Shown here one piece after another: positions 1 through 17,917 of a stretch of DNA of 64,000 nucleotides. The DNA lies in contig CAYHXC010000008.1 of assembly GCA_964360585.1 (NCBI GenBank), positions 8 through 64,007 of the forward strand, written 5' to 3'. The translations under genes were made by a program, and so were the position numbers. The DNA is from an uncultured Candidatus Saccharibacteria bacterium (GTDB taxonomy: Bacteria; Patescibacteriota; Minisyncoccia; UBA6257; 2-01-FULL-56-20). Every line of letters begins with the position of its first letter. Within the stretch, counting starts at the first letter, position 1. The notes under the pieces were generated by a model. It was given only the letters and a program-made list of their open reading frames with translations. It ran no database searches and had not been told where the DNA came from.

Positions 1-658
1 AAAGTCGCGACTATTTGGATATTATTGAAAGAGCGCCGGATACTTACGCCAAAGTTTCCGCAGATTGGCGGCAGGAAAATTTCATTATGGCCGTGTCGGT
101 TATATATTTTTTGCATAACCGAGAAAACCATCCTGATTTTCTGTTTCCTTGGTTCTTTCAGCTCCTCCGGCACAAGAACGGAAATATTCTACGTGTATAG
201 GCTGGTTACGGTAATAGTTCCAATTACCCTCCTTTACTGAAGCTCTGGCGGACGAGTCGGACGGGCAAGCGCCTGCCTGCCGGTAGGCTGGTCCCCTTCG
301 ACAAGCTCAGGGTAAACCACGTCGAGAGCCTTATGGGATGAACGGACACAAAACGTCCGTTTTTCTCTATGCTTATTTCCCCTTTTTAGCATAGTACACT
401 GGACAAAAAATACCGATGTTGTCCACTACAGTGATCCAACTGGTCAAAATCAGCTTTTCCGTAATGATACAAAAGTGTCATATTACGGAAACGCAGAGTA
501 AAAAGTCTTAGTTTACTGACTTTGTGCACCTTGCCCCTAGCGTATCAATTGCATCGCCTTTTTGTGTCAAGTCGTAATACAGATATCCTTATTGCACTTT
601 TTATGGATATCTGGTAATATGGGAATACGTATTTCAACTTAGATAAAACAGTAAAACT

Positions 659-1819
659 ATGGCAAACAAAGCGCAGCAAAATCACTTTATAGCGGGGACC
701 CACAAGAAGCACTTTTGGGGCAAAGACTACGAATATCGGAGTTTTTTGCCGTCCCCGGTTAATCGCCCTTATGAATGGCAGGACAAAAGAATCCCCGTCC
801 TCTTGGAAGAAGCGATCAGACTTGTCGGTGAATTGAATGCCTACTCCATCCTTGTTCCAGATGTAGATTTTTTCATTCAAATGCACGTACGTAATGAAGC
901 AGTGAAGTCAAGTCGCATTGAAGGTACTCGCACCGGCATGGATGAAGCCGTCTTGCCGGAAGAAGAAATCTCTCCAGAAAAAAGAGACGATTGGACCGAG
1001 GTGCAAAATTATATAAAAGCAATGAATACAAGCATTGCTCGACTTAGCGAGCTCCCAATCTCAATGAGACTTCTGCAAGGAGCTCACAAAATTTTGTTGT
1101 CTGGTGTTCGTGGCGAACACAAACAGCCGGGAGAAGTTCGCACTGGGCAAAATTGGATTGGTGGCACAAGTATTCAGACGGCCGCTTTCATTCCACCTCA
1201 CCCCGAAGATATGGGAGAGGCCTTAAAGGACCTTGAGTTCTTTTGGCATAACAAAGGATTGAATATGCCTCATCTGATCAAGATGGCGATTTCTCATTAT
1301 CAGTTTGAGACAATTCACCCCTTCAATGATGGTAATGGAAGAATTGGTCGTATGCTGATCGGACTTCATCTTATTGAACTTGGAATTCTACGAAAACCAA
1401 CACTATACCTTTCTGACTTCTTTGAAAGAAACAAAGGAGCGTATTATGACGCGCTCACTTTTGTGCGTGAGCGAAACGATTTGGATCAATGGATTGTATT
1501 TTTTCTCTCGGCAGTCATTGAAACAGCTAAAAAAGGCAAGGACACATTTGAGAAGATTATTGATCTACGCGCTCGCTACGAGAAACAAATTATGGAGCTT
1601 GGACGTCGGGCAAAACTGGCTCATAAACTGTTGTTGCAATCATTCTCTATGCCGGCATTTAAGGTTTCTAATGCCTCTAAATATCTGAATGCCTCGAATA
1701 CGGCAACCAATACTCTTGTCGGAGAAATGGAACGTGTCGGAATTCTTAAAGAAGTAACCGGTTTTTCCCGTAACCGGATTTTTGTCTTGCACGAGTATCT
1801 GGAGCTCTTTAAGAGATAA
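659..1819 (+). CDS. Fic/Fido family protein (putative AMPylase/toxin-like)
   Basis: Canonical Fic motif [12 protein letters not shown] in a 386-aa ORF. Confidence 0.85.
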
Positions 1820-1908
1820 AACCATGCCACAGAAAATTGCCAAATGATCTGCAAGATAGACAACCGGACTAAATCTGGAAATTAAATTTATGTTAAGTAA
1901 AAAAAATA

Positions 1909-2481
1909 ATGATCATAACCATAAAAATTATCCTAATATTTATAGTCCCTTTAATTCTAAGTTTGGTCATTCGGTCAAGTCATCATCAAACATATGAATT
2001 TGTGAATAAGGAAAGCAAAAGAATGGTTGCACCTACGGTGCCATATCCTTATTTGTCAGGTTTGTTTTCGGATATACTGCTTCAAATTGGCATAAGTCCT
2101 TATAGTTTTTGCATAGAAAACAATTCTTTTTCAAAAGAATATTCTCTGCCCCATGACTTAGCTTTTAGATTAGAGGGTGAGGCTGAGTTTAGTAAAATTC
2201 ACTACAGCGAAAAAAAATGTATACCCATACTTAAAAAAGATGTTTTCTACGATGTGGCATGGGGTGGCTTTGTTATTCCTAATAAAGAATGGGCAGACAA
2301 GAATTTTAAATGCGATTCTGGAAAGTGTTCACTAAATTTTAAAGTTGATGAAATTGTGAACTTCAATGTTTATTCACGATTAAATTTTCCAGCACTAATT
2401 ATTGTGTATATCCTTTTAGTCGCCGCCGTGTTTGGATTTGTTAAGCTTGCTATTTCTTTATACACTTTCATCAGGCCGTAA
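1909..2481 (+). CDS. hypothetical membrane protein, markedly AT-rich
   Basis: 190-aa ORF with hydrophobic N- and C-terminal segments; A+T-rich codon usage unlike neighbours. Confidence 0.4.
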   Translation: MIITIKIILIFIVPLILSLVIRSSHHQTYEFVNKESKRMVAPTVPYPYLSGLFSDILLQIGISPYSFCIENNSFSKEYSLPHDLAFRLEGEAEFSKIHYSEKKCIPILKKDVFYDVAWGGFVIPNKEWADKNFKCDSGKCSLNFKVDEIVNFNVYSRLNFPALIIVYILLVAAVFGFVKLAISLYTFIRP

Positions 2482-2864
2482 TTGTAATTGCCGCCGCCAA
2501 AAAATTCGCCAGCCCAAGCGAGAGCGAGGCGGGAACTGCAAAGCACATACAAGTCGAATCAAAACCCTAGTAGTACAGCATCCCCGTAGCAGAAACTTCG
2601 TTTCGCTACGGAACAAGAAGCTGACTACGGGGCAAGCAACCCCGAAGCAAACGCGATGCGTTGCAACGGGGCGAGCCCCATACCAGTTCGCGACGGGTAA
2701 ACCCGCCTTTGCCAGAGGCTACGGACGGGCAGGCAAATGGTAAATTCGTGGTGCCTTACACGTTCTCGTACTTGGCAAGCAGGCCTTGACACCATCTTTC
2801 AAAAAGTGCGGCCACGAGGAGATATTCGCACAGTGGAGTCCTGCGACGAGGAGTTAATCGGTTC

Positions 2865-2873
2865 TGTTATAAT
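2865..2873 (+). promoter_or_regulatory. extended -10 promoter element (TGtTATAAT) giving a near-leaderless transcript of the NADAR gene
   Basis: TGtTATAAT lies about 7 nt upstream of the ATG at 2880. Confidence 0.35.
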
Positions 2874-2879
2874 TTCACT

Positions 2880-3335
2880 ATGCACAGATTAGATACGGAA
2901 AAACAAATCTTTTTCTACGAGAATGAGTTCTATGTCTTCTCCAATTATTCTTCTTTCACCATCGAATGGAAAGGTAGCTTATATCCAACATCGGAACATG
3001 TATACCACTCTGAAAAATTTAATGACGAGAACCTAAAAGAGCAAGTGAGACTTGCGCGTTCAGCCCATGATTCGCAAAAGTTCGCGCAAGCGAATGTCGA
3101 TAAATACAGAAAGGATTGGAATCAAATTAGGATAGGTATTATGAAAGATATCCTTCTAGTAAAAGTTGAGCAACATCCCTACGTGAAGAAGAAGCTTCTG
3201 GAATCAGAAAACAAGGAACTTATTGAAGATTCCTGGCGAGATTCATTTTGGGGCTGGGGACCAAATAAAGATGGTGAGAATCGCCTTGGTAAGCTTTGGA
3301 TGGAAATCAGGAATGATTTTAGAAATAAGGAGTAG
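2880..3335 (+). CDS. NADAR domain protein (YbiA-like)
   Basis: YbiA-like conserved blocks: PTSEHvYHseKF and WGwGpnkdGeNRLGklWMEiR. Confidence 0.7.
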   Translation: MHRLDTEKQIFFYENEFYVFSNYSSFTIEWKGSLYPTSEHVYHSEKFNDENLKEQVRLARSAHDSQKFAQANVDKYRKDWNQIRIGIMKDILLVKVEQHPYVKKKLLESENKELIEDSWRDSFWGWGPNKDGENRLGKLWMEIRNDFRNKE

Positions 3336-3357
3336 TTTTTCATAATATAATCAGGGT

Positions 3358-3615
3358 ATGTCCGAAAAAGAAACGTTGCACAAAGTGCCAGTGGATTTAC
3401 GAAAAGCTCTTACTTCCAGCGCCGCGGCGCGAGCAGTATGGGAGGACATTACGCCACTGGCGCGCAATGAGTGGATTTGCTGGGTCATCTCCGGTAAAAA
3501 AATGGAAACGAGAGGTATCCGTATCGAGAAAGCGCTCTCAAAACTGAAAGGCGGCATGCGCCGGCCTTGTTGCTGGGTCGGCTGTGGACATCGTGGTTCG
3601 ACAAGCTCACCATAA
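3358..3615 (+). CDS. YdeI/OmdA-like small protein, copy 1
   Basis: 85 aa with ARNEWICWV...KKxETRxxRIxKAxSKLKGGMRRPCCWxGCGHR signature; one of three paralogs in the window. Confidence 0.6.
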   Translation: MSEKETLHKVPVDLRKALTSSAAARAVWEDITPLARNEWICWVISGKKMETRGIRIEKALSKLKGGMRRPCCWVGCGHRGSTSSP

Positions 3616-3854
3616 TTTTAGATTTTCCTGTTCTGTTGCAACTTATCTCGGTAGATAATGGAAACGAGCGCAAAACTGAGAATTAAGAGGAGGAACCAGG
3701 AGCCGATCTTATTGGCTGACGCACAAATCCAAAAAATCCTAGAACAACTTGAGAATCATGAAAAAAGTATAGCATCCTCGAAAAAAGAAAAAAGCCCGAT
3801 TACCACATGATGATGTGATAATCGGGCTCAAGTACTTTAGAACGGAATCACCTC

Positions 3855-4625
3855 TTAGCCTTCGATGAAGGCGGAGGCAACGAGCAGGTTTCGAAGTGAA
3901 ACCGGATCGTTCTTCGAGATGACGTGGAACTGAGGGATGAATTTGGCGACGTCCGCATGACCGCTTTCGATCTGCGCGATCACTTCGTCGGCCGCACGCC
4001 CCGTGCCTTCGACGAGCACTGTCGGCCAGCCGCGTCGTGCGGAGTGCATGATCTCATCTTTCGTGATAGGCCCGCCGTTCCAGGCGATGGTACCGAGAGC
4101 CTCGAAGCCGGCGTACGTCCTCCAGTGTTCCATCATGGTGAAGTAGGTGGGAACATCGAGGTCCCACTCTGCCTTACCGTCAGGACCATTCTGGACGATC
4201 AAGATGCCCAGCATGTCCGGATTTGGCACGGTTCCGTACTCGTCGAGCACGAGACGTGAGTCCTCCTGAAGTGAGAGCATGCTGGTGCGTGGACACGTGC
4301 CCAACGCGACACACCCCGGATTTTCCGAGGCGATCAGGCCCGGCACATCGGTGACCATCGGATCCACTTCGCCGTTCGCAACCTGACGCGTGCCGCCCGA
4401 CCAAGCCAGTCCTTCGAAACCTCGAAGAGCTTTCGAGAAAAACGAAAGCATTGCACGCTTGTCATCGGGTCCCATGCCTTTGCATCCGCCGAGGAAACGC
4501 AACGCCACCTTCTTTCGCGCGCGCGTACCCATGAGAGCGAATGCGGCGGGAAGACCATCGGTCGCATTCATCACGACCAGATGCACCTTCTCGCCATTCA
4601 CGTGATAAGGTCTCGTTCTATCCAT
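3855..4625 (-). CDS. divergent LOG/SLOG-superfamily Rossmann protein (paralog A)
   Basis: Glycine-rich motifs FLGGCKGMG, AWSGGTR and WNGGPITKDEI...VLVEGTGRAAD resemble the LOG GGGxGxMG / PGGxGTxEE pattern; compare canonical LOG at 48152. Start set at an internal ATG with a GGAGG SD. Confidence 0.5.
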   Translation of the reverse strand: MDRTRPYHVNGEKVHLVVMNATDGLPAAFALMGTRARKKVALRFLGGCKGMGPDDKRAMLSFFSKALRGFEGLAWSGGTRQVANGEVDPMVTDVPGLIASENPGCVALGTCPRTSMLSLQEDSRLVLDEYGTVPNPDMLGILIVQNGPDGKAEWDLDVPTYFTMMEHWRTYAGFEALGTIAWNGGPITKDEIMHSARRGWPTVLVEGTGRAADEVIAQIESGHADVAKFIPQFHVISKNDPVSLRNLLVASAFIEG

Positions 4626-4649
4626 TATTCCTCCTCCCATCGCTGGGTG

Positions 4650-5447
4650 TTATGTTCCGGTTCTTTCTACAAGCCGGAAACGTGACTCAGTTTTCGGCAC
4701 TATCGAAAGTTTCTCGAGTTGATGCCGAAGTGACATTTCCGTAAGTTCGGCAACGTGAACATGCGGATGCGCCAGAAGAAATTCTTTATCGTTTGCGTAG
4801 CGATCGGTCGTCCGACCACTACCGCGGATAAGAAGAACTGGCCACGCACGCTTTGCCCAAAGAAGAATTTCCTTTTCGGTAATACCTCCTCCGTTATAGG
4901 TGAGTAGAAGCGACCGCCACCCGCCACCATAGGTGACGAGATGCTGAACAATCTCTGCACACGTCTCATACTCCGTGTCCCAACAGCTCTTCTGATCAAC
5001 AGAAGCCTGCACGATGAGACACGTATCCTGATTCGGATGTGCAATGGTGAAGTAGGGATCTTCCGGATTATCCGCGACCACCAGTCCGTGTTGGGTGAGC
5101 TGAAGATCGCTTTGTCGTGCGACAACCCCGAGCGTGTATGAGTCGGGGCAGAGCTCACGAACAATGGGCGCAATCTCAGTAATGCCTAGAACAACCTTTG
5201 TGGGATCACTCCGGGAACGCATCTGTGTCCCTCCGAAGAGAACTGCTCCGCGGAAACCGCGAAACACATTCCCAAAAAGATTAAACATTCCTTGAGCATG
5301 CTCATCGGACATGAATCCACAACCGCCGGTCAGTCGAACAACGACAGTGTCTTTAGCCTTCGTGAGGCTAAGAGCCACCTTTACGGAAAGCTTTTCCCCC
5401 TCGTTTTCTATATACAAGGAGGGAACGTTTTTCACAGGAAAGCTCAT
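4650..5447 (-). CDS. divergent LOG/SLOG-superfamily Rossmann protein (paralog B)
   Basis: Paralog of previous (RLTGGCGFMSDEH, LFGGTQMRS, YNGGGITEKEI...LLIRGSGRTTD); strong SD aaggaggag upstream. Confidence 0.5.
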   Translation of the reverse strand: MSFPVKNVPSLYIENEGEKLSVKVALSLTKAKDTVVVRLTGGCGFMSDEHAQGMFNLFGNVFRGFRGAVLFGGTQMRSRSDPTKVVLGITEIAPIVRELCPDSYTLGVVARQSDLQLTQHGLVVADNPEDPYFTIAHPNQDTCLIVQASVDQKSCWDTEYETCAEIVQHLVTYGGGWRSLLLTYNGGGITEKEILLWAKRAWPVLLIRGSGRTTDRYANDKEFLLAHPHVHVAELTEMSLRHQLEKLSIVPKTESRFRLVERTGT

Positions 5448-5610
5448 GGATTCTCCTCCTTTTTTGATTCTGTTTTTTGAATTGTGAAGGGCTGAAACTA
5501 GGGCACATTATCATCTAATTTTAATGTATTGTCAATACCCTGGATATACACAACCCGCGCGGTAAGAAGCGTACGTTTACGTCTGTATATTTGTCCCGTA
5601 GAATGACCTC

Positions 5611-7545
5611 ATGACCCCTGAAAAACCACATGATGGTGAGGGAAATACAGAACGAGTAGAAAAATCACACCTTACCCCTCCCGCTCTCGAACTACTTCTT
5701 GACACAGGAGAAGCGGTTGTCTGGCCGGAAAAAATCAAAAACGATGTCGAGTTTGTAAAGCAACGAGAAGAACGGAAACAACTGATTAATAATTTGGAGC
5801 GAGTCACAGATCGATTACCTCGTCCTGATGTTTCTCTCCAAAACGCCGTAGCAGAAAAGATCATTAGTGAACCGGAAGTCGCTACTTTATATGAATCGCT
5901 ACAGAAACTCCTAGAAGACCCGGACTATGGGAGAGCTCTTCTCTATATTCCTTTTGAGTTCTTACCGAAATCAACGTGGAGTGCCGAAACAACGGAACTG
6001 AAAACGGCGATAACGGCATTCACGAATATCTATCTAAAAACATGGGAGAAACTTCTTCATTCACATGACGTACGAACAAATTTTGTTGATGGCGATATGA
6101 TCGAAATAGATTTTCGCGAAGGAGATGACTGGCCTCGTGTAGTCAAAGCAGCCCACCTTATACCACAACTTTTAGAGCACGATCTCATTACTACGGAACA
6201 GATATTCTCTCTGGCAGAAAAAACTAACGATACTCTTCTGAAGAGTACTATTGACGACGCATTGCTCGTAGCAGCAGATCTTGGTCGTCTCACTCCAGAG
6301 GATCGAGCCCGCATGCGATCGTCCAGCGATGAAGCTCTTCGAGGAACGGAAAAACTATTTGATGAACCCCTTGCAAACGAAAGCAACGTTACCGGACCAA
6401 TCGATTTTCAAGTGGTTGAGCAGGAGCTGAACACCACACTAGAGGAAGCCCGAACGGCCGACTACGGCTCCGTATCCCCCAACAGAAAAACCTGGCTGCA
6501 ACAGGAAAAACGACGACACCTCCTTGCAGCGGCCAGCCAGAAAATGTATCAGGCAATTGCTTCCAAACAACTTACTCCCGAGATTGGAAAAACATATATT
6601 GAAACCACCGGCAGTGCTATGGGAGAAGCTTGCATTGAAGGCATACGACAAGCAGTAGAAGCCGCTGTGGAAAAAGATCCAGGCAAGGGACAGCAACTCT
6701 TCGAGGAGTATCGCAATGTTATTACTACCGCTTGGAAAGAAAAACGAATTGAGACTCGGGATGCGTTAGGAAAACTATTTTTCCGCCTCAATACTCTCGG
6801 TGTTATCAATACTCAAGAACTAGAAACTCTGGGAATTGCTCGCCCAAATCTGGTTGGGCCATTTACAGAAAATCTGAAGTTCATGGAATCTGAAATGGGC
6901 GATGTGGATCGAATGTTGCGAGCGATCGAGAACAATCCAGGATTATCAGAACTCATTTATCCAGTAATTCTGATGCACGGGTCACGACTTAAGGGCTATA
7001 GCGCCGCCGAGTCTGATATCGACATCAGTATTATTGTTCGCCCCGAGGTGTCTGTCGAAGAACGCGAAAAGTTAGAGAAATTATTACAAGATGTATTTGC
7101 TCACGAAAAAATCCCTGAAAAAGTGATTGAATTTTGGCTCACCGAAAAAGACGGAAATCTATCCGTTCGGAATTTTGAAAAAAACGATCCTGCTTTAGGA
7201 GAATCCTCGTTTGTTCATATCTTATTCGGCGCCGTCTGGAAAGGCGATCCGAAAGTAGTTGAAGAATTACGAGAAAAATTACTAGTCCCCTATTTTTATC
7301 CGACTGAAGAAAAACTCTACGGCCGAGAGGCGCGAGATATTTATATTGAGCAGTTAGAGCGCGATGCTCTCCAATATCGACTCATGCACAAGGGTTATGA
7401 ACGATTCTTTCCGCGATTCGGAGGTGTCCGTTCGAAGCACGCTAACTTAATTGATGGTGAAAGTACTTTCTGGGACTCTGGGTATCGACAAACTGCCTTA
7501 CAGTTGTATGCCCGTCGAGTATTCTTGCCGAAACTGCAATCATAA
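5611..7545 (+). CDS. large protein with C-terminal Pol-beta-type nucleotidyltransferase (MNT/CD-NTase-like) domain
   Basis: hGS...GxxxxxSDxD NTase signature HGSRLKGYSAAESDIDISIIV in the last ~200 aa; ~430-aa N-terminal region of unknown function. Confidence 0.6.
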   Translation: MTPEKPHDGEGNTERVEKSHLTPPALELLLDTGEAVVWPEKIKNDVEFVKQREERKQLINNLERVTDRLPRPDVSLQNAVAEKIISEPEVATLYESLQKLLEDPDYGRALLYIPFEFLPKSTWSAETTELKTAITAFTNIYLKTWEKLLHSHDVRTNFVDGDMIEIDFREGDDWPRVVKAAHLIPQLLEHDLITTEQIFSLAEKTNDTLLKSTIDDALLVAADLGRLTPEDRARMRSSSDEALRGTEKLFDEPLANESNVTGPIDFQVVEQELNTTLEEARTADYGSVSPNRKTWLQQEKRRHLLAAASQKMYQAIASKQLTPEIGKTYIETTGSAMGEACIEGIRQAVEAAVEKDPGKGQQLFEEYRNVITTAWKEKRIETRDALGKLFFRLNTLGVINTQELETLGIARPNLVGPFTENLKFMESEMGDVDRMLRAIENNPGLSELIYPVILMHGSRLKGYSAAESDIDISIIVRPEVSVEEREKLEKLLQDVFAHEKIPEKVIEFWLTEKDGNLSVRNFEKNDPALGESSFVHILFGAVWKGDPKVVEELREKLLVPYFYPTEEKLYGREARDIYIEQLERDALQYRLMHKGYERFFPRFGGVRSKHANLIDGESTFWDSGYRQTALQLYARRVFLPKLQS

Positions 7546-7548
7546 AAA

Positions 7549-7583
7549 AAGCCGGACGATCACGAATGATTGTCCGGCTTAGG
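7549..7583. terminator. bidirectional rho-independent terminator
   Basis: aaaaaaaGCCGGACgatcacgaatgattGTCCGGCtta between convergent genes. Confidence 0.65.
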
Positions 7584-7610
7584 CTAACTACTAAAAAAGA
7601 ACTGTTGAGC

Positions 7611-8798
7611 CTAGAGACTGGTCTTGGCTTTGCCGCCGATGCCGGTGAGATCTCTTCCGCCATTGCGACGAACACCGCCACCGTCCAAGTGACTCCACGG
7701 AATCGCCACACCGAGCTGCCACAGCGCGGTGATGTAGGTGAGCTCCGTCTGGCCAACACTGACGTTCGGAAGCTCAATAACTCCCAGGGTGTAGCCCTTC
7801 AGACTCTGCTCGAGCCTGGGATAGTCTGATGAAACAGCCACTCCCAGCTGCTTGAGCATCTGATCGCGATTCAGTGCGCCGACCTGTGCCGGAAGACTCG
7901 GATTCTCCAGAGCCCTCCTGATCTGTTGAGCATCATAGGCCAATGCCATGGCCACGGGAATGCCCGTACCAGCAAAGATACCGTTGATGCTTGTGATCAC
8001 AGCTTCGGCTGCATCACGGAGACCGTCGGTGGGAGGCGGAGGCATCATTCCAGATGACAAACCTCCCGCCCCACCTGCCATACTGGCAAAGACGGCCATC
8101 ATGGTTGCTGGATTTGCCATTCCTTTCTGCCAGGAATCGATCCAGCCGACCAAGAGCTCTTGAAAAGAGATTAGGGACGGCCAAAGGTTGGTATCCATCT
8201 TGGCAAGCAGGGCTGTCTTGCGACTCTTCGTCGCGAAGCGGCCCGTTGGCCCTGGCATCGCCGCGAAGATCTCAGCATAGCTACGTTCGGTCAGGGTTCG
8301 CTGCATATCCCAGAACTCCGGACTGGCTGGTTCTTCGAGCGACTCGGCATTTCGCTCCATGGCAATGACGATCTTCTCAGGAAGGTCGTAGAGACCCACC
8401 CGATTGGCCAGCGCAGCACTCACGGTTCCAATGACCGTCTCGCGGTTGAACTTGAGAACTCCCCCAACCTTCAGGGCTGCGAGCCACGAAGTGTCGTCAG
8501 GAACGGGCGGCAGGACCCCCTCGAAGGAAATCCTTGCCATAGCAGCCGCGTCGGCCGGAGCGCTCACTGCCGGCTTCAGAGCCGCCAGCAGATTGCGAGC
8601 AGGAATTCGCTTCATCCCCGCTTCGATCAGATCGGCTTCGGTCAGTGCGCCGAGGTCTTCGACCTTGGTCACACCGAAGTCTTCCTTGATCTTGGCGATC
8701 ACATTCACGTCGGCGCCGTGCTCGATGAGCTTGGCGTCGACCGGATCCACTGGGGCTGGCTCTCCCGATGCTACGGGAGTGGTTTCCTCTGTTGTCAT
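7611..8798 (-). CDS. hypothetical protein (396 aa) with Gly/Pro-rich segment
   Basis: ORF trimmed to internal ATG (MTTEETTPV) preceded by AAGGAGAA; the longer form would overlap the upstream gene by >300 nt. Confidence 0.5.
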   Translation of the reverse strand: MTTEETTPVASGEPAPVDPVDAKLIEHGADVNVIAKIKEDFGVTKVEDLGALTEADLIEAGMKRIPARNLLAALKPAVSAPADAAAMARISFEGVLPPVPDDTSWLAALKVGGVLKFNRETVIGTVSAALANRVGLYDLPEKIVIAMERNAESLEEPASPEFWDMQRTLTERSYAEIFAAMPGPTGRFATKSRKTALLAKMDTNLWPSLISFQELLVGWIDSWQKGMANPATMMAVFASMAGGAGGLSSGMMPPPPTDGLRDAAEAVITSINGIFAGTGIPVAMALAYDAQQIRRALENPSLPAQVGALNRDQMLKQLGVAVSSDYPRLEQSLKGYTLGVIELPNVSVGQTELTYITALWQLGVAIPWSHLDGGGVRRNGGRDLTGIGGKAKTSL

Positions 8799-8808
8799 GC
8801 GCTTCTCC

Positions 8809-10197
8809 TTATCTGCAGAGTTTGTCCCGTTCAGTTGGGCCGAACGAAACCAGGCGAACGGGTATGCCCAGTTTCTGGCCAAGGATCCCCACACACAGAT
8901 CGTACAATATGTCACGATCGGCGGCAGGGGCGATATCAAAAGAGAATATCTCCGGCACGCAGTTTTGCAACTCGTGTCCAAGACATTCTTGAAAGGATAG
9001 TCGGGACAGATCCTCACCATGCCGCACACGCAATTCGCCGCTTGGCGTAAAATACGTAAAATCATCGGCACCTGAGTATCTGTCTGAGAGTGACCAGATT
9101 TTATTTTTCTGGATCTGATCAAACCAGGTTACGGCGAGACCGTCGAAGGCTTTAGTGCCGCCACACGCCTCGATGGCGTATCGCAACAACACCAGGTCGA
9201 GTGGACCCACTCGAGCTTTGCCTTGATAACGATTCTCTACCTTGTTGCTGCCCGGCAAGAGCTGCTCGCTCATGGCCGGATCAGCGGTTGGCATCGGTCC
9301 TGCTCCGTGGCGTATCTGATACGCCCGAGTGACGCCGATTTTTATCACCTCTCCACTGTATCCAGCTTCCTCGATCATCGCCCAAGTAAACTGAGGCAAC
9401 GTTCGAATGGCAGACACATGCGGATGAAAACCATAGTAGCGATCGGTGAGCACTCCGTGAGAACTCTCGACCACCACTACGCCATCACGATTAAGGATCT
9501 CTCGCCGGAGATAGTCTTGATCGACTATGTACACACGCTCCGCCGTTTCCCGAAAACGACTGACAACGTAATTCAGAAAACCATCATCTCCGAGGAGACT
9601 CAGTTCTTCCTGAACCACATCGCGGTCATCTTCTAGAAATGAACCCTCAATGATATGCACCAGATCACGACGAACGTATTCACGAATCGCCGCAATCTGA
9701 TCACGGAGGCAAGATCCCGAAAGATCTCGAGCGCGCACGGCGGTGTCAGGATAACGTTCGGCTTGCCGATACGCCTCGCCGACACCAGTACCAATCGTTC
9801 CGCGAGGATTATCCCCACGGGCCAGTTCTTTGATGCGAGAAGCGATGCCATGAAATGGCGTCGCACAGAGTGCATCTTCGTCGATAGTCAGAAGACCAAA
9901 GACTCCGTCGAGGCCACAGGCAAATTGCAACTGGGTCCCTTCGTTTAAGATACCTTCCGGCGTAACGACGAAGCGAGACGAAAGATGCGTCCTCGCTCCT
10001 TCGAAGGTGCCGCACCCCCACTGACTGAACGCGAAGCGATCGCCAGCTGAGGTTTGTACACCGTGACTTCCTTGAGCACCGCCAACTTTGATGATGGTGT
10101 GTGCTCGTCGCATCGAACTGATCTTGTGAATAATTCCACCCTTACCACCGTCACCAGGACCAAGGTCCGTGACGGTGTACAGCTTTTTTGTTGCCAT
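8809..10197 (-). CDS. adenylosuccinate synthetase (PurA) family homolog, divergent
   Basis: N-terminal GDGGKGG (PurA GDEGKGK P-loop) and VGGAQGSHG (PurA GGxNAGHT) blocks, plus PurA-like length; start set at MATKKLYTV. Confidence 0.6.
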   Translation of the reverse strand: MATKKLYTVTDLGPGDGGKGGIIHKISSMRRAHTIIKVGGAQGSHGVQTSAGDRFAFSQWGCGTFEGARTHLSSRFVVTPEGILNEGTQLQFACGLDGVFGLLTIDEDALCATPFHGIASRIKELARGDNPRGTIGTGVGEAYRQAERYPDTAVRARDLSGSCLRDQIAAIREYVRRDLVHIIEGSFLEDDRDVVQEELSLLGDDGFLNYVVSRFRETAERVYIVDQDYLRREILNRDGVVVVESSHGVLTDRYYGFHPHVSAIRTLPQFTWAMIEEAGYSGEVIKIGVTRAYQIRHGAGPMPTADPAMSEQLLPGSNKVENRYQGKARVGPLDLVLLRYAIEACGGTKAFDGLAVTWFDQIQKNKIWSLSDRYSGADDFTYFTPSGELRVRHGEDLSRLSFQECLGHELQNCVPEIFSFDIAPAADRDILYDLCVGILGQKLGIPVRLVSFGPTERDKLCR

Positions 10198-10233
10198 ACC
10201 ATCACGTCCTTGATCCTGGTTGAGGGTCAACCC

Positions 10234-11367
10234 TTAGAGCCAACCGCCGTCGGGCTTGGTAGCAGTAGATTTACCCTTCTTCTTCGACAAACCGCCAAGT
10301 TCGGCGGCTTCGTCCGCATTGACCGGCCAGAGGTCGGTTTTGGTGTGGAAGATGTCACCTTTCTTTGGCTGCCTGTTGAAGTTCGGTAACGCTTTCTGCG
10401 CCCCGAGTGGAATGCTCGAAACCGCACTTAGAATCATCGCCACCTCTCTCTCTGTCAGATTCTGATGACCCAGGAAATCCTTGGCCGATCGAAGATCCAA
10501 CGTTCCTTCCGTGAGACCGATGATCGTGGCCATCGCGTACGGAGCGTGCTGGACTCGAGACAGACGGATGAGTCGATCCTTTCCGTAGAGATCCCGCCAG
10601 AAAGCGGGAGCACCCGGATTGGGATCGACGATCAGGATGAAGATGTGCGCTTGCTTCGTCAGCTCACGCACGACGTCCCGTGTTTCGGGAAGGTCGCGCG
10701 GATCAATCTCGTAACCGTTCTCTTTGACCTTGTCGAACACCTCAGATCCGTAGATCTGCTTCAGAGCGGCCGCCTCCAGTCTTTCGCGTGCCGGCGCATC
10801 GGTGATCGTGAAGTCGTACGACTTCAGACCAATCAGCCGTTGGTAGGCGCGGGTCAAGTAGGCAGCCCCGAAAAGTCCGTAGTGCGGATCTTCGGGTATG
10901 TCGCCGCCTTGTCGGATCGGGTTCATCAGAGTCAGCTGATTGACCATCCGATCGGCCAGCACTTCGAACTGTCCACGACACATGATGAATTGGTCGTCGA
11001 CATCATTGAAGACACCCGCACAGTAGAACGGATCTCGTCCAGAAAGCACTTCGGCGACGGGCTCGCACAATGCCGGCAAAGCCGCCAAGGCCAAGTCCAC
11101 ATTGTCGCCCATCGACGATGTCGTATCGAGACGATACTCGATCGAAACTGGCGAACCGACAGCGACCTCGAAGAGGCCGTCCGATCGGTCGAGGAGACGA
11201 ATCCGCGAAGGACGGATGACCCCGTACTGAGCTGGATCAACCAGCGGGTCGAGCTTGCCGGTTTTCTTGACCGTTTGCTCCCCACGCACGGTTACTGCAG
11301 CTCCCCTGGTCGTCAGCTTTGACGTCGTTTCCTCGAATGTAGTTCTCGAAAAACCACCTTTGGCCAT
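10234..11367 (-). CDS. vWA-like domain protein (TerY-like)
   Basis: Putative MIDAS-like D-T-T-S-S-M after a hydrophobic strand; start at M3 with GAGGAG SD. Confidence 0.4.
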   Translation of the reverse strand: MAKGGFSRTTFEETTSKLTTRGAAVTVRGEQTVKKTGKLDPLVDPAQYGVIRPSRIRLLDRSDGLFEVAVGSPVSIEYRLDTTSSMGDNVDLALAALPALCEPVAEVLSGRDPFYCAGVFNDVDDQFIMCRGQFEVLADRMVNQLTLMNPIRQGGDIPEDPHYGLFGAAYLTRAYQRLIGLKSYDFTITDAPARERLEAAALKQIYGSEVFDKVKENGYEIDPRDLPETRDVVRELTKQAHIFILIVDPNPGAPAFWRDLYGKDRLIRLSRVQHAPYAMATIIGLTEGTLDLRSAKDFLGHQNLTEREVAMILSAVSSIPLGAQKALPNFNRQPKKGDIFHTKTDLWPVNADEAAELGGLSKKKGKSTATKPDGGWL

Positions 11368-11379
11368 GTGCATTCTCCT

Positions 11380-12198
11380 CTAAAGCGGTAGGGTGGTGAA
11401 AGGATAAAATCCCCTCTCCCACAGTTGATCAACGAGTTCGTAGAAGTCCCGATGGGCTTCCTGAGCACTACGATGACCGTTCTCTCGAAGGACCATCAGG
11501 TACTCACTGTACTGATCGAACTCTTTACTTCCGTCTCCCGGAATGCCTCCTTCATCTGTGCCGCCCAAAACTGCAAAAACAGTTTGGGCTGCGGCCTTCA
11601 CCTCCTCAGACGCATCGATCCGAGTCACACCGTCGGGGTGTCGCTGGGCGTTTCCCCAGTTGAACACCAAAACGCCATGCTGGCTTGGTTCGATGAGAAC
11701 GTTGCCTGGAGTGATCTGGTTAATGGTGATGTCTGCGCCATGTGCGAAAGCGACAATCTTCAGAAGTTTGCCTAGGATCCAAACGCTGGACCGAAGGTCA
11801 ACCCTCTGTTGGTCTCGGTGCACAACGTTGTGCAAGGGCACCATTCTCCGTGTGTCGTCGATGTTCCTGAAGGCAAGCACATTGGCCCGCCGCTCCCCCT
11901 GTTCGGTCAGCAAGAAGCTGTCGACTAGGGCAGGAAAACCGAGCTCATAGTGGAGTTTACTCTCCGGGTTGGTCTTGATCTTGGTATACATCTCTTCCAA
12001 CTCACCAGCTCGCGCCAAAAGTTGTTCGAGAAAATACGCTCCGCGATCAAGCATGCCATTCTGAGCAACATCCGTTGCCACTTGCAGTAACTGCCCTTGA
12101 CCGTCCCCCTCTGGCGAGCAAAGGTACAAACGGTACTCGGGTGTTTCTGCGACACGATCGCCAACATGGTACATACGTGAACCATTTCTAACGATCAT
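11380..12198 (-). CDS. protein kinase-like fold protein, divergent (possible pseudokinase)
   Basis: Catalytic-loop-like HGADITINQITPGNVLIEP (cf HRDLKPxNIL) and VHRD, but no clear DFG Asp; strong SD GGAGGTG. Confidence 0.35.
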   Translation of the reverse strand: MIVRNGSRMYHVGDRVAETPEYRLYLCSPEGDGQGQLLQVATDVAQNGMLDRGAYFLEQLLARAGELEEMYTKIKTNPESKLHYELGFPALVDSFLLTEQGERRANVLAFRNIDDTRRMVPLHNVVHRDQQRVDLRSSVWILGKLLKIVAFAHGADITINQITPGNVLIEPSQHGVLVFNWGNAQRHPDGVTRIDASEEVKAAAQTVFAVLGGTDEGGIPGDGSKEFDQYSEYLMVLRENGHRSAQEAHRDFYELVDQLWERGFYPFTTLPL

Positions 12199-12362
12199 AA
12201 CTCTCTCACCTCCTATCCTTTCTTGATACTTGGTTAACTGAACTAAAATAAGTTATCAAAGGGCACCTCCGGTCGAAAATCCCATAAATACAGGATTCCG
12301 GCGGATGTTGCATTTAAGTATAAATTGTTCCTTTTGTCAATATTTTCTGCCATCAAGATTTC

Positions 12363-12596
12363 TTGAATCATTGTAGTTTGGTGAGCAGTTCATCGGAACA
12401 AATCCTACTGAACCGAGGCGCCGCGGCACGAGCAGTATGGGAAGACATGACGCCCCTCGCCCGCAACGAATGGATCTGTTGGATTATTTCCGGTAAAAAA
12501 ATGGAAACGAGAGGTATCCGTATCGAGAAAGCGCTCTCTAAACTGAAAGGCGGCATGCGCCGGCCTTGTTGCTGGGTCGGCTGTGGACATCGTTAA
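12363..12596 (+). pseudogene. YdeI/OmdA-like paralog, copy 2, N-terminally diverged or truncated
   Basis: Shares the C-terminal 60 aa and a ~107-bp near-identical nucleotide block with copy 1; lacks the HKVPxDLRKAL N-terminus and only a TTG/GTG start is available. Confidence 0.4.
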
Positions 12597-12696
12597 CAGG
12601 TAGACACCACCATATTTTCACAAGTAATTGCCGGAACAATACTTGACCTTTCTTATTTTTTACGTTATTTAAATCTTAGACTAAAGGAGAAGTCTT

Positions 12697-13053
12697 TTGA
12701 GAACATTAACAAAAAGTACACCGACCACAGCGACTCCATGGACCAAAGCAATCCGGCAAACCCGAGATCATGACAACCGTCTGTCTCTTATCCAAGAGAT
12801 GCCCATCGTGGCGTGGTTTTCGAAAATAAGAGGCCGGATACATCGATTGATCAAAGTAAGAGCGCGACTCGGAGACAATGCGTGGATTATCGTCGATGCG
12901 CAAGGGTTCTTTGGAACGTTGTCGCCTACCACCCTGGATGCCTGTCTGCGCACTCTTACCGCTGAAAATGGGTGGGTACTCTGCGAGTTCACAAGCGAGG
13001 CTGACTTTTACAGGACTGCACTCGCTTATCTTGAAGAGGCACGCACAGATTGA
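12697..13053 (+). CDS. hypothetical protein (118 aa)
   Basis: TTG start 6 nt after AAGGAG; terminator follows. Confidence 0.35.
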   Translation: MRTLTKSTPTTATPWTKAIRQTRDHDNRLSLIQEMPIVAWFSKIRGRIHRLIKVRARLGDNAWIIVDAQGFFGTLSPTTLDACLRTLTAENGWVLCEFTSEADFYRTALAYLEEARTD

Positions 13054-13065
13054 CTTCAATTATAC

Positions 13066-13104
13066 CGTCTCACCTTTACAGGTGCGGCGGTTTTTTATTT
13101 TTTG
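13066..13104 (+). terminator. rho-independent terminator
   Basis: Hairpin CACCTttacAGGTG followed by cggcgg and a T-run. Confidence 0.5.
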
Positions 13105-13204
13105 TCCCAAGAAAAAGCCGCTGGAGCCGCATATGTTGACACTCAGCTATTTATAGTGCATTTTCTAGGCAGCAGATATAGGAATCCTTGAGAGGAGGGT
13201 TGTT

Positions 13205-13759
13205 ATGCCCATCTACTTGCCGAAACAGATTGAGCCGCTCACGCCGACGGTTGATTCCCCACTATTTTTTCTGGCCGGACCGATTCGTGGAGGCGGCGAC
13301 TGGCAGTCTCACATGGCTGTCTGTATCCTCGATCGAGAACCATCGGCACTCATTGCTTGCCCGTCACGATGGGGTAGCAATCATCGGCTGGCGCATCACT
13401 TCTATCGGCCATACTCACAAGCAAACAACCGACAGCTCGTGTGGGAACGCCACTACCTCAAGCAGGCTGGGCTTGAACCGAATGTGCCAGGCTGTATTAT
13501 CTTCTGGCTCGGCCTTGAAAGCACGCGGGATCCTCATCCGGGTCCTCAACCATATGCGATGGACACCCGACGCGAACTGGGGAAATTCACTGCCTTCGCG
13601 GAAATGATGAACGTTCGCATGGTGGTCGGCGGCAACCGCGGCTTCCATGGACTCGGAGTCATCCTCTTCGAACTGAGCGAGGCCATCGGAAAAACCTTTC
13701 CGTTCCACGAAACAATGGAAGATGTCGTTACTCATGCAGTGGCAACTGCCCAACGGTAG
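13205..13759 (+). CDS. nucleoside 2-deoxyribosyltransferase-like (NDT/Rcl-like) protein
   Basis: N-terminal FFLAGPIRGGGDW resembles the NDT-family YLAGP glycine-rich motif; strong SD gagaggaggg. Confidence 0.5.
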   Translation: MPIYLPKQIEPLTPTVDSPLFFLAGPIRGGGDWQSHMAVCILDREPSALIACPSRWGSNHRLAHHFYRPYSQANNRQLVWERHYLKQAGLEPNVPGCIIFWLGLESTRDPHPGPQPYAMDTRRELGKFTAFAEMMNVRMVVGGNRGFHGLGVILFELSEAIGKTFPFHETMEDVVTHAVATAQR

Positions 13760-13765
13760 ACGAAC

Positions 13766-13802
13766 ACCCGCCCCTCTTCAATGATCGGGCGGTTTTTATT
13801 TC
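13766..13802 (+). terminator. rho-independent terminator
   Basis: CCCGCCCctcttcaatgatcGGGCGG + TTTTTATTT. Confidence 0.6.
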
Positions 13803-13888
13803 TTCAAAAAAGTCTCGCGCCGAGAGTAGAACCGAATCCCCTGTTTGTTTTGTAGTATTTAGAATCCTAATTAATGTAAAATAAAAGT

Positions 13889-14131
13889 ATGGTCAGAAAA
13901 GGAATAGTACATAAAGTGCCGGCGGACTTACGCAAAGCTCTGATTGCAACACCCGCGGCGCGAGCAGTATGGGAGGATATTACGCCTTTAGCGCGCAACG
14001 AATGGATCTGCTGGGTCATATCTGGCAAAAAAGCGGAAACGAGAATTATCCGTATCAAAAAGGCACTCTCAAAACTAAAAGGCGGCATGCGCCGACCGTG
14101 CTGCTGGGCCGGTTGCGGTCATAGAAAATAA
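13889..14131 (+). CDS. YdeI/OmdA-like small protein, copy 3
   Basis: 80 aa with the same signature as copy 1; more diverged at nucleotide level. Confidence 0.6.
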   Translation: MVRKGIVHKVPADLRKALIATPAARAVWEDITPLARNEWICWVISGKKAETRIIRIKKALSKLKGGMRRPCCWAGCGHRK

Positions 14132-14275
14132 AGCGAAGGAGGGCGGAAAAGAAATATTAAAATGAATTCATCCGAAATTCATTTGCGATTGCGTAAATTT
14201 TTTATGTTGGAGTACGCACATCGACACAACGTTCTTTGACATACTTGAATAAGCTCCATCTCTCCTCTCCCTTCT

Positions 14276-14310
14276 CTCCACCACAACCGCGCTCCACTTC
14301 CGAGCGCGGC
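14276..14310 (+). terminator. rho-independent terminator
   Basis: CCGCGCTCcacttccGAGCGCGG + CTTTTATTTT. Confidence 0.5.
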
Positions 14311-14474
14311 TTTTATTTTGTGATAAAAAAAATAATAAAAATGAAGAAATATTTTTCTTACTTCTTGGGCGGCATAGCAATCCTAGCACTGTCTCACGCT
14401 ATTGAGCCATTACGGCTGGTTGACAAAAGAAGGAATTGTGTTTAATTTGTGGTCAGAACATAAAGGAGAAGTAT

Positions 14475-15020
14475 ATGCGTCATGCGCTGGTCGAATCATA
14501 TGTCCGACAGCTCCGCTCATCGCTTCAGGCGACAGCAGTGCCAGTCGAGGAAGATATGTTGCGATCTTTGTATGACCGTCGGAGTTATGGCGGTCTGGTT
14601 GGTGTGATCAAAAAAATCATGCACCTGGAATTGCGAATCCGCCTGGGTCTCGTAAATAATGGAGGACCTAATGCGCCGGCCTGGGTTCAATGCCCGGACC
14701 CGATGCCTCTCTATGGAAGCTCGGAATTTTGCAAGATAGAGGTACCGCTCTATCTGAGGAAAAGCTTCTTGAGAGAAGTTGAGTTCGAGCAGGTGGTGTG
14801 CGCGATCGCTCACGAACTCGCCCATGTGGTGTTACATAGCCTGCGCCATCCTCTCAGAACCGAGGAAGAGGCGGTGGATCTCACGGCGATGCTCCTGGGA
14901 TTTCGGGACTTCTATATGACCGGGTGCGTTCAATCGTTCAGAGGCCATGTCGTGTACCAGCAGGGATATCTCTCAGAAAAAGAGATTTGTTACGCTGCGC
15001 ACTACATGACATTTAGATAA
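14475..15020 (+). CDS. putative HExxH zinc metallopeptidase-like protein
   Basis: AIAHELAHVV motif; start at ATG after AAAGGAGAAG. Confidence 0.45.
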   Translation: MRHALVESYVRQLRSSLQATAVPVEEDMLRSLYDRRSYGGLVGVIKKIMHLELRIRLGLVNNGGPNAPAWVQCPDPMPLYGSSEFCKIEVPLYLRKSFLREVEFEQVVCAIAHELAHVVLHSLRHPLRTEEEAVDLTAMLLGFRDFYMTGCVQSFRGHVVYQQGYLSEKEICYAAHYMTFR

Positions 15021-15024
15021 TTTA

Positions 15025-15056
15025 AGTCGCTACTCGTAGCGGCTTTTTATTTTCTC
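15025..15056. terminator. bidirectional terminator
   Basis: AGTCGCTACtcgTAGCGGCT + TTTTATTTT between convergent genes. Confidence 0.55.
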
Positions 15057-15826
15057 TTAAAGCGACTTCGGTAAATAATAGAAACAAGCGCAAAGCTTAA
15101 GATGAGCAGGAGAAACCACGAGCCAACCTTACCAAGTGAAACCAGGCGCCAGGAATCCAGCTGGCTGGGGTAAATCCAGATGCGGGTAAAGGTGCCGATA
15201 TTTTCCGCAATCCAAACAAAGAGCGCAGTCAAAAATGCGGCTAAGAGAAATGGCATGTTCCGAACTTTACGGTAGACTTGGAAGTGGATTTTGGTTTTGA
15301 AAAATATCAGAAGTACGTACGCAAATAAAAAGTAGCGGATATCGAAGAAAAAGTGATGCGCGAAGAAGTTAACATAAATGAGAATTGCGAGTACCCAAAG
15401 ATGGAGGTAGGCGGGAAAATTTTCATATGAGAGTTTGAGGAAGATAAAAGCCCGCGAGATGTAGCTTCCGACGGCGGAGTACAGAAACCCGGTAAACAGT
15501 GGCACCGTACCGAGAGCAAATATCGCCGTCGCGAGACCCGGATAGCTCCAGGAGCCGATGGCCGGATTAGTTTTGAATAATTCCATGATTGTGGCTAGGA
15601 TATGGAAAATGATAATGACCGCAAACTCTTTGAGTTGTTCGAAGCGAAATAAGAGCGCGCATATCTGGAATCCGATCGCCGCAAGAAAAATAAAGTCATA
15701 TCGGCTGATTAACGGAACAGTGACAACCTCGGTCAAAAGAAATATAGAAAGCAAAAATACGCCAAAATAACTGGCCCGCAGATTGGCAAGAAAGAAATGC
15801 CATAACTCGATAAGGAAAGTCCGCAT
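15047..15826 (-). CDS. polytopic integral membrane protein
   Basis: 259 aa, multiple hydrophobic helices. Confidence 0.6.
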   Translation of the reverse strand: MRTFLIELWHFFLANLRASYFGVFLLSIFLLTEVVTVPLISRYDFIFLAAIGFQICALLFRFEQLKEFAVIIIFHILATIMELFKTNPAIGSWSYPGLATAIFALGTVPLFTGFLYSAVGSYISRAFIFLKLSYENFPAYLHLWVLAILIYVNFFAHHFFFDIRYFLFAYVLLIFFKTKIHFQVYRKVRNMPFLLAAFLTALFVWIAENIGTFTRIWIYPSQLDSWRLVSLGKVGSWFLLLILSFALVSIIYRSRFKRK

Positions 15827-15976
15827 ACTTATATAGTATGCATCATAAGTACCATTTCTTCTTCAATTCGGACAGAGATCTCCTGCGGGCAATGATTAAT
15901 CAAAACTGAAGTTTTTAGTTATATCATGGTAATATATTAGAAAGGGTCATAAAGGTCGCAATTTCTTATTGAAACA

Positions 15977-16165
15977 ATGAAAATCTTTAAATCCTGGACA
16001 TTCGCATGGTGGGAAGTCAGTCTTATCAAACTCTGCCTCATGTCCCTTGGCATCCTCCTTGGCCTTTATTTCTACGACTATCTCATAGATCTCCTTTCGC
16101 TCTGGTGGGCAGTGTTTGTTGTGACGGCTCTCTATTTTATTATAAGATTCTTCCGTGAAGGATAA
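15977..16165 (+). CDS. small membrane protein
   Basis: 62 aa, two hydrophobic helices, immediately upstream of the SPFH gene. Confidence 0.4.
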   Translation: MKIFKSWTFAWWEVSLIKLCLMSLGILLGLYFYDYLIDLLSLWWAVFVVTALYFIIRFFREG

Positions 16166-16214
16166 GGAGGAGGATTAATAGACAACGTTTTCTGAAAACA
16201 CTATAATTTACGCT

Positions 16215-16994
16215 ATGGAACTTTATTACATTGCGGGAGGATTTGTAATTTTTATTATCCTTATTAGCACCAAACAGGTAAACCAGTTTGAACGCGGTAT
16301 CAAATTTACCATGGGCAGATTCACTAAGATTATGGAACCGGGCTGGCGACTCGTCTTCCCGATTTTCCAGTCCTATCAGAAAGTGGACATGCGCATAAAA
16401 GCGGTGGATGTTCCCGACCAGAATGCAATTACCAAAGACAATGTTTCCGTAGCCGTAAATGCCGTCATCTACTATCGCGTCTCATCGGCCGAGAAAGCCA
16501 TCTTGGAAGTAGAGAATTTTTTCTACGCCATCTCGCAGTACGCCCAAACCACCATGCGCAACATTGTTGGTGAAGTGACGCTTGATGAGCTCCTGAGCAG
16601 TCGCGAGTCTATCGCCAATCGCATCAAGGAAATTGTCGACCAGGAAACCGATGCCTGGGGACTCAAGGTGAATAACGTGGAACTGAAGGATATCAAACTG
16701 CCTGAGACGATGGAACGAACCATTGCTAAACAGGCTGAAGCCGAACGCGAAAAGCGCGCCGTAATTATCACTTCCGAAGGAGAGTTGGCTGCTTCCCAGA
16801 ATATCGCCCAAGCGGCTGCGACACTCGCTGGCTCAGAGGGCGCTCTCCATTTACGCACGCTTCAGTCCATCAACGATGTCTCTTCCGATCAGTCAAATAC
16901 GATTGTCTTCACCGTTCCCTTAGAAATTCTTCAGGCCTTCACCGGCTACGTGAAAAAGCACAAGAGCGATCTACACGAACATGAGTCCGTATAG
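16215..16994 (+). CDS. SPFH/band-7 (stomatin/prohibitin-like) protein
   Basis: N-terminal TM helix then a band-7-like core, followed by a Glu/Ala-rich region (AKQAEAEREKRA). Confidence 0.8.
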   Translation: MELYYIAGGFVIFIILISTKQVNQFERGIKFTMGRFTKIMEPGWRLVFPIFQSYQKVDMRIKAVDVPDQNAITKDNVSVAVNAVIYYRVSSAEKAILEVENFFYAISQYAQTTMRNIVGEVTLDELLSSRESIANRIKEIVDQETDAWGLKVNNVELKDIKLPETMERTIAKQAEAEREKRAVIITSEGELAASQNIAQAAATLAGSEGALHLRTLQSINDVSSDQSNTIVFTVPLEILQAFTGYVKKHKSDLHEHESV

Positions 16995-17060
16995 TTACTC
17001 GCAGTAATTTTTAAGTTTGCTATACTAGAGATAGCCCACCATCTCGGAAGGAGGAATGTC

Positions 17061-17456: not shown

Positions 17457-17479
17457 CTTCCCGCCTCTGGCTCGCCAGT

Positions 17480-17893: not shown

Positions 17894-17917
17894 GTTGAAA
17901 TATCGAGTCAATACAAT

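Follow-up and report, generated by a model that had tools for sequence, protein, structure and literature searches.

The locus described here raises the question of whether three copies of one small gene, two of which share a block of almost identical sequence, constitute a device for exchanging the genes that lie between them, or are simply the trace of ordinary recombination. The window, by which we mean the whole stretch of DNA analysed, covers 64,000 nucleotides (nt) of an uncultured Candidatus Saccharibacteria bacterium (GenBank assembly GCA_964360585.1, contig CAYHXC010000008.1, positions 8 to 64,007 of the forward strand), and the gene families surrounding it are typical of Patescibacteria (candidate phyla radiation, CPR). 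The three copies, named c1, c2 and c3 in what follows, belong to the OmdA family (PF13376). A preliminary description made from the sequence alone had recognized them as one domain and had proposed that they may act as recombination handles for cassette exchange. The analysis presented here indicates that the array is the result of ordinary recombination in a patchwork region, with no dedicated cassette-exchange device. In our judgement it is probably a by-product of displacement-type recombination with DNA diverged by around 20%, followed by ectopic gene conversion between c1 and c2.

A 105-nt tract of near-identity in two diverged OmdA copies

The three copies are all located on the + strand and pass the curated gathering score of PF13376 (25.6 bits; individual scores in Table 1). 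Copies c1 and c3 are intact and c2 is truncated, and searches with tblastn and nhmmer returned no further OmdA copy in the 64-kb window. Positions 3419-3594 of c1 and 12418-12593 of c2 align without gaps, with 14 mismatches in 176 nt, 13 of them within the first 71 nt (3419-3489, 82% identity) and a single one (A/T, at 3540) across the 105 nt from 3490 to 3594. This is in agreement with the preliminary description, which had indicated a block with one differing nucleotide, an identity of about 80% upstream of it and the loss of the N-terminus of c2, although the block measures 105 rather than about 107 nt. The clustering of mismatches is not due to chance, either when all sites are considered (permutation P = 4e-4) or when the analysis is restricted to sites that are polymorphic among the three copies (P = 1.3e-4). 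The tract is not unusually constrained, because c1 and c3 differ there at 20 of the 105 sites, 12 of these differences being synonymous codon changes. In the family as a whole, represented by 83 genes of 80 other genomes, nucleotide identity between members is 70% in the median and at most 87.5%. Their longest exact run, over 3403 inter-genome pairs, is 14 nt in the median and never exceeds 50 nt, so that no pair approaches the identity of the tract. Third-position conservation is 0.57. Clustered identity, combined with a control for constraint provided by the third copy and by the family, is what characterizes a gene-conversion tract, and the 105 nt are best read as the product of recent ectopic gene conversion. 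The mosaic statistics and the third-copy control also lend support to the earlier suggestion that the mosaic reflects recent gene conversion or recombination.

The arrangement is reproduced in independent data. The window matches contigs of replicate 0.1-µm groundwater metagenomes from Hainich well H51 (ENA ERZ1292623/27/43; Logan ERR3858114/5). Contig L084 spans window positions 3205-23759, from c1 through c3, with one mismatch in 20.5 kb that is not within the OmdA copies, and contigs L082 (window 1-11301) and L083 (window 1-6395) both cross c1. Both the single c1/c2 difference at 3540 and the three-copy layout were recovered in the independent replicate assemblies, three in number. The exact c1 and c3 proteins, as well as that of a 184-amino acid (aa) protein encoded between c2 and c3, are present only in Hainich H51 assemblies (that of c1 only in two Hainich contigs), the closest c1 homologue beyond these contigs being 86% identical. 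At a synonymous site of c1 located 30 nt upstream of the identity tract (position 3704 of L083, window 3459), one replicate assembly shows C, as in c2, in place of G; this variant could be a micro-conversion, a population variant, an independent mutation or a low-coverage error, which are indistinguishable at a coverage of about 5x.

Truncation of c2 and divergence of the three copies

In contrast with the tract, the rest of the three genes is old. At the DNA level, c1, c2 and c3 share about 80% identity and differ mainly at third codon positions. Outside the tract, none of them is closer to another than to its counterparts in other CPR lineages; c1, for instance, shares 83% identity with an Adlerbacteria OmdA gene and 81.5% with c3. 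The differences between c3 and c1 (about 79-81% nucleotide identity) are evenly spread. All three copies have been separate OmdA-family genes for a long time. Between c1 and c2, 14 differences fall in codons 3418-3489, which comprise the 71-nt segment and one boundary mismatch at 3418; 12 of them are at third positions, and c2 therefore had a long history as a working gene before its truncation.

Homology between c1 and c2 ends at the CGT right before the TAA of c2, and no similarity is found upstream of 12418 either; c2 therefore lacks around 20 N-terminal codons, and the open reading frame (ORF) starting with TTG at 12363 is a read-through of unrelated sequence. The nhmmer match of c2 begins at model position 44 of 215 and is complete from there on. 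No gene is called at c2 in the sole gene table that covers it (that of L084), and a collection of 15 billion proteins contained none of the five ORF sequences, c2-derived or hybrid, that were sought in it. Copy c2, probably a pseudogene, keeps the canonical family stop, and c1 has a 6-aa tail (GSTSSP) beyond the usual family ending (...GCGHR); tails after the HR are variable across the family.

According to the alignment made here, the CPR OmdA minigene subfamily comprises proteins of about 80 aa with invariant H8, C41, C71, C72, C76 and H78, ending in ...RRPCCWxGCxHR. Both c1 and c3 carry all these residues, and the part missing in c2 includes H8 and the first helix. Judging from sequence conservation, the invariant His and Cys residues suggest metal binding. 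The AlphaFold model consists of four helices, with a predicted local distance difference test score (pLDDT) of 81, and no sequence or fold match for OmdA was found in the PDB. The minigene is extremely conserved, with 6596 protein clusters in the search, and the 80 closest genome loci show 68-91% aa identity across CPR phyla, including some metagenome-assembled genomes labelled as DPANN archaea. Two further possibilities were rejected. One is that OmdA is virus-borne: no relatives were found on viral contigs in IMG/VR. The other is that a long antisense ORF running across every OmdA copy is an overlapping gene: it is open in 37 of 83 genes, fewer than the 48 of 83 that synonymous resampling predicts.

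Relics of the 3' ends of DUF817 and obg

Copy c1 is followed by the remnant of a second gene, DUF817, whose full-length counterpart is found beyond c3 (Table 1). Residues 238-271 of DUF817 match positions 3731-3630 with 65% identity (tblastn, E about 1e-8), including a stretch, GSWFLLLILSFALVSIIYR, that is identical in protein (19/19) and 78% identical in DNA. The stop codon of this relic (3618-3620) is 2 nt beyond that of c1, in convergent orientation, so c1 and the relic represent a native convergent gene pair, and the 6-aa tail of c1 and the next ~135 nt are not cargo. A fourth OmdA relic proposed at 3632-3668 by a repeat search (local alignment p < 0.003) was discarded: it is in fact part of the DUF817 relic, and the nhmmer profile of the OmdA family gives no match there. 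Between the DUF817 relic and c2, each of them truncated on the side that faces it, lies an inserted block (~3735-12417). The relic separates c1 from this block and therefore c1 and c2 are not its junction repeats.

A similar situation was observed far from the OmdA copies, in the essential GTPase gene obg (42457-43422, - strand), whose last 24 codons recur 104 nt downstream, with a perfect 42-nt palindrome (42378-42419) between gene and relic. This looks like allele displacement by diverged DNA. The three 3' relics of the window (c2, DUF817 and obg) are thus alike, being ~78-82% identical to their intact partners with mainly synonymous differences, a pattern of divergence under purifying selection that can be seen in the third-position share already given for c2, in the fully conserved peptide of DUF817 and in the 87.5% aa identity, against 79% in nucleotides, of the obg relic. 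At OmdA (c1 followed by c2), DUF817 and obg, the 3' relic lies beyond an intact gene, on the same strand, and retains both its own stop and its downstream flank, which is the layout of a displacement array. Given that the pattern is the same at obg and DUF817, OmdA is not special, and the relic at obg points to displacement-type recombination as a general process. A scan of 1.35 Mb of CPR loci revealed two more 3' relics of other genes (L035 and L073) and few 5' relics. In rhs, contact-dependent inhibition (CDI) and type VI secretion system (T6SS) loci, displacement of C-terminal regions with orphaned 3' ends has been attributed to homology-facilitated illegitimate recombination (PMC5361080, citing Jackson 2009, de Vries & Wackernagel 2002, Prudhomme 2002, and Meier & Wackernagel 2003).

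OmdA loci in other genomes

The surroundings of OmdA were compared in 80 loci from GTDB species representatives, counting OmdA genes within ±10 kb. A single OmdA gene is present in 76 of them. Its neighbours are highly variable, with small membrane protein, DUF1428-like, glyoxalase-like and DUF1801-like genes as recurrent ones, and the genes bracketed in the window were in no case found next to OmdA in the 80 loci. The picture that the preliminary description had set against its own proposal, one gene per related genome with constant flanking genes, is therefore found only in its first half: there is mostly one copy, but the flanking genes differ. With the window included, 4 of 81 genomes have a full OmdA copy and a 3' relic. 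In L071 (relic at 10839-10886), L078 (11190-11260) and L052 (3337-3399), the relic lies 0.6-1 kb downstream of the intact copy, with unrelated genes between them, and all four relics are 3' fragments that reach the gene end, on the same strand as the full copy and downstream of it. The first 23 nt of the L071 relic are identical to the full copy, and identity then drops to ~60%. A fifth genome (L055) has two full copies, again separated by unrelated genes. The genes between copies elsewhere are ordinary accessory genes, such as those for an ABC transporter or glyoxalase-like and DUF1801-like proteins.

No syntenic relative was found in a scan of the genome contigs of GTDB species representatives, and a metagenome scan with a neighbouring 194-aa gene yielded one distant match, without OmdA. 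ORFs of deletion or circle-junction hybrids were absent from the 15-billion-protein collection, which is weak negative evidence.

Origin of the array

The sequence of events that we favour would start with the entry of related DNA, diverged by ~20%, through one homologous and one illegitimate end, by homology-facilitated illegitimate recombination or an equivalent replacement. With each entry, what remained of the resident gene would have been its 3' end, as a relic located downstream of an intact copy; c2 would be one such displacement relic and the DUF817 fragment beside c1 another. Later, a short non-reciprocal homologous exchange involving the 3' ends of c1 and c2 would have transferred 105 nt or more from one to the other, creating the sharp identity boundary at 3489/3490. 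Several observations weigh against this sequence of events. The three OmdA copies are about equidistant, which calls for several donors or for old paralogy within the genome. The tract extends right up to the limit of the homology, an uncommon feature for conversion tracts of the classical internal type. In both c1 and c2, the 5' and 3' segments have non-overlapping sets of nearest family members; the segments are too short, and donor and recipient of the conversion are indistinguishable from these nearest neighbours. Finally, no close relative with an earlier state was present in the collections searched, and a single genome is the basis on which we infer the donors, the polarity of conversion, and the order and route of events.

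An alternative without foreign DNA is that the copies are old in-genome paralogues, generated by segmental duplication of a unit formed by OmdA and a convergent DUF817 gene, with later deletions and insertions; the tract would still result from gene conversion. The resemblance of c1 plus the DUF817 relic, on one side, and c3 plus the intact DUF817 gene, on the other, to two copies of one unit is consistent with this, as are the similar divergence of the OmdA (81%) and DUF817 (78%) pairs and the absence of the OmdA-DUF817 adjacency from the 80 other loci, so that the unit would be lineage-specific. However, obg is an essential and normally single-copy gene whose relic shows the same ~80% divergence, which allele displacement fits better; moreover, the relics are all 3' ends and the three OmdA copies are as distant mutually as from OmdA genes of other phyla. 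We therefore consider duplication a reasonable but rather unlikely alternative. The direct repeats flanking the interval could also be seen as att-like duplicates, in which case a circular molecule with an OmdA 3' fragment would have brought in the 9-kb block through one crossover (Campbell-type or site-specific), leaving the identity block as its scar. The canonical stop of c2 and the tail of c1 would be explained in this way, and the L071 relic, with its 23 identical nt followed by divergence, is as expected from a crossover in short identity. Yet the tail of c1 and the following ~135 nt are the native convergent DUF817 gene end, so that the repeat does not abut the inserted DNA, which makes a crossover scar an unlikely origin of the tract; there is no integrase or recombinase gene within the interval, the five-gene module of the block is found elsewhere without OmdA, and a crossover does not by itself render its two products identical. 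This entry route appears quite improbable.

The proposal that the OmdA copies are evolved recombination handles for the exchange of nucleotide-centred cassettes draws on the fact that they bracket two gene sets, and the four genomes with a full copy and a 3' relic, together with the two full copies of L055, could be invoked in its favour. It found no support in the comparison with other genomes, where OmdA is single-copy in most loci with varying neighbours and the intervening genes are ordinary, and where the five-gene module and the 184-aa gene occur without OmdA beside them. The relics at obg and DUF817, the position of the DUF817 relic between c1 and the block, the lack of a recombinase in the interval and of an inverted-repeat site, and searches that found no structural variants, no deletion or circle ORFs in the protein collection and no OmdA on viral contigs also speak against it, and we regard handles as very improbable. 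Even less credible is an assembly artefact, by repeat collapse or chimeric joining in a low-coverage metagenome. Coverage is only ~6x (as derived from contig names) and the Logan contigs are interrupted within the block (one of them, L085, begins at 12564), but the three replicate assemblies agree, including the difference at 3540, the flanks differ on both sides, so there is no collapse, and a 105-nt repeat can be spanned provided that reads slightly exceed 105 nt.

Displacement followed by conversion, the explanation preferred here, represents a clean textbook case of a paralogue gene-conversion tract accompanied by recombination scars in an uncultivated Patescibacteria genome, that is, known processes in a new instance from an under-studied lineage rather than a new recombination system. 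More broadly, it is of value as evidence that genomes as reduced as this acquire genes through displacement-type recombination, anchored by homology, with DNA that is fairly diverged, and, if general, it bears on accessory-gene turnover in CPR bacteria, in which few mobile elements are recognised. RecA-mediated recombination between the two 105-nt direct repeats could now remove the 9-kb interval; this possibility follows from the structure, and there is no sign that it is a selected function. A bolder view, to which we give little credence, is that conserved genes of this CPR lineage, OmdA among them, might be landing pads where DNA of relatives diverged by ~20% is added beside the resident allele without replacing it, with conversion keeping the c1/c2 repeat identical and the 9-kb nucleotide-enzyme module being looped out and regained within the population. 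Were it true, displacement-type recombination would be a main route of gene gain in bacteria with few known mobile elements.

Genes between the copies and other features of the window

The coordinates of the features discussed are listed in Table 1. The inserted block comprises two SLOG genes, followed at its left edge by a strong terminator-like hairpin, and the five-gene module, which is found in identical order in other CPR genomes (39-66% aa identity; e.g. L086 7920-14629 and L089 8008-14666), in many Patescibacteria and in unrelated genomic contexts, without OmdA or SLOG genes. Its nucleotidyltransferase has 644 aa, the SAM-like protein ~395 aa and a third member ~380 aa. The PurA-like protein, which is very divergent, reaches 71 bits with the purA model (cut-off 395) and 139 bits with the phage PurZ-type phrog_1211. 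None of the ORFs of 3616-12417 has an integrase, transposase or resolvase domain, there are no inverted repeats of at least 30 nt in positions 1-20000, and no tRNA, tmRNA or Rfam elements that might serve as integration targets are present in the window. PADLOC models identified no complete anti-phage defence system, giving weak single-gene matches only (NADAR with PDC-M42C; the kinase-like protein with PD-T4-6/PglW, E 1e-4 to 1e-3).

Table 1. Position and basis of the features discussed in the text.
Feature	Position	Strand	Basis or remark
c1, intact OmdA minigene, 85 aa	3358-3615	+	Pfam PF13376, 59 bits
Left copy of the tract (in c1)	3490-3594	+	105 nt, one mismatch at 3540
DUF817 relic, last ~34 codons, N-terminal ~235 codons missing	3618-3731	-	tblastn
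Terminator-like hairpin, 17-bp stem, after the SLOG genes, left edge of block	3792-3829	-
SLOG (LSDAT_prok) gene	3855-4640	-	Pfam PF18171; pair scores 35.7 and 32.5 bits
SLOG (LSDAT_prok) paralogue	4650-5447	-	PF18171; 30% identical to the other SLOG gene
Five-gene module: Pol-beta-type nucleotidyltransferase	5611-7545	+	Domain matches
Five-gene module: SAM-like	7611-8798	-	Domain matches
Five-gene module: divergent PurA/PurZ-like	8809-10230	-	Domain matches
Five-gene module: unknown, 379 aa	10234-11373	-
Five-gene module: kinase-like	11380-12198	-	Domain matches
c2, 5'-truncated OmdA relic, codons ~21-79 + TAA, probably a pseudogene	12418-12596	+	PF13376, 48.2 bits
Right copy of the tract (in c2)	12489-12593	+	105 nt
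Unknown, 118 aa, between c2 and c3	12697-13053	+
Conserved CPR 184-aa protein, between c2 and c3	13205-13759	+	No Pfam match
c3, intact OmdA minigene, 80 aa	13889-14131	+	PF13376, 67 bits
Intact DUF817 gene, full-length counterpart of the relic	15047-15826	-	Pfam PF05675, 266.7 bits
obg 3' relic, 24 codons, own stop	42285-42356	-	79% nt, 87.5% aa identity

The 184-aa protein has 328 homologues with up to 80% identity and no PDB match; the best 120 of these 328 are 59-80% identical, and those with a named source are from CPR lineages. In other genomes its gene (L091 8001-8555; L093 2765-3319) is found beside Shedu SduA_C nuclease or LDcluster4/DprA-like SLOG genes, never OmdA, which suggests a nucleotide-related or defence-linked role.

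Directly upstream of c1 there is a NADAR-family gene (2880-3335), above the cut-off for TIGR02464 (riboflavin-intermediate N-glycosidase) and with weak matches to NADAR anti-phage models; together with a Fic gene (659-1819), it is part of a left flank of low GC content (35-43%). A 171-nt element consisting of a near-perfect long hairpin (-80.8 kcal/mol, z = -10.6) is present at 19172-19342 and 35727-35897. The two copies, in inverted orientation and 98.8% identical, flank 16.4 kb that include the gene for a 2580-aa surface-type protein (Big_7, Laminin_G_3, Calx-beta and fn3 domains), and the element may be similar to miniature inverted-repeat transposable elements or mark an invertible segment. 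A family of intergenic repeats of ~77 nt with 84-91% identity (25747-25823, 35912-35965 and 39706-39786; core GGCTTTTTTATATGCCAAAG...CCGTGGA, no Rfam match) may correspond to a promoter/leader motif or a small mobile repeat.

Comparison with known systems

The alternation of repeats with unrelated gene sets is superficially like that of integron cassette arrays. Unlike in integrons, the repeats are coding genes, there is no common promoter logic, no intI integrase was found and attC-type imperfect inverted repeats of at least 30 nt are absent from positions 1-20000. Direct repeats of the 3' part of a gene around ~9 kb of accessory-looking genes also recall the genomic islands located in the 3' ends of tRNA, tmRNA or protein genes, but here there is no recombinase between the repeats, a native relic parts the left repeat from the insert, and the repeat, instead of forming a uniform core, is a mosaic.

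Ectopic (interparalogue) gene conversion is known in bacteria, for example in duplicated tuf genes and rRNA operons. The tract described here shares with it a short, sharp-edged stretch of near-identity inside diverged paralogues of one genome, and the non-reciprocal, homology-dependent character of the exchange. It differs in that one partner is a truncated relic, probably no longer functional, the tract stops only where the homology stops, and there is a single tract, with no ongoing homogenisation of the whole gene.

As in the rhs, CDI and T6SS arrays (PMC5361080), an intact gene is followed by same-strand 3' remnants of diverged alleles with new genes between them, and one end is anchored by conserved sequence. 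Unlike those arrays, which obey a toxin/immunity logic not evident here, the genes involved in this CPR host are a conserved minigene, a membrane protein gene (DUF817) and the essential GTPase gene obg.

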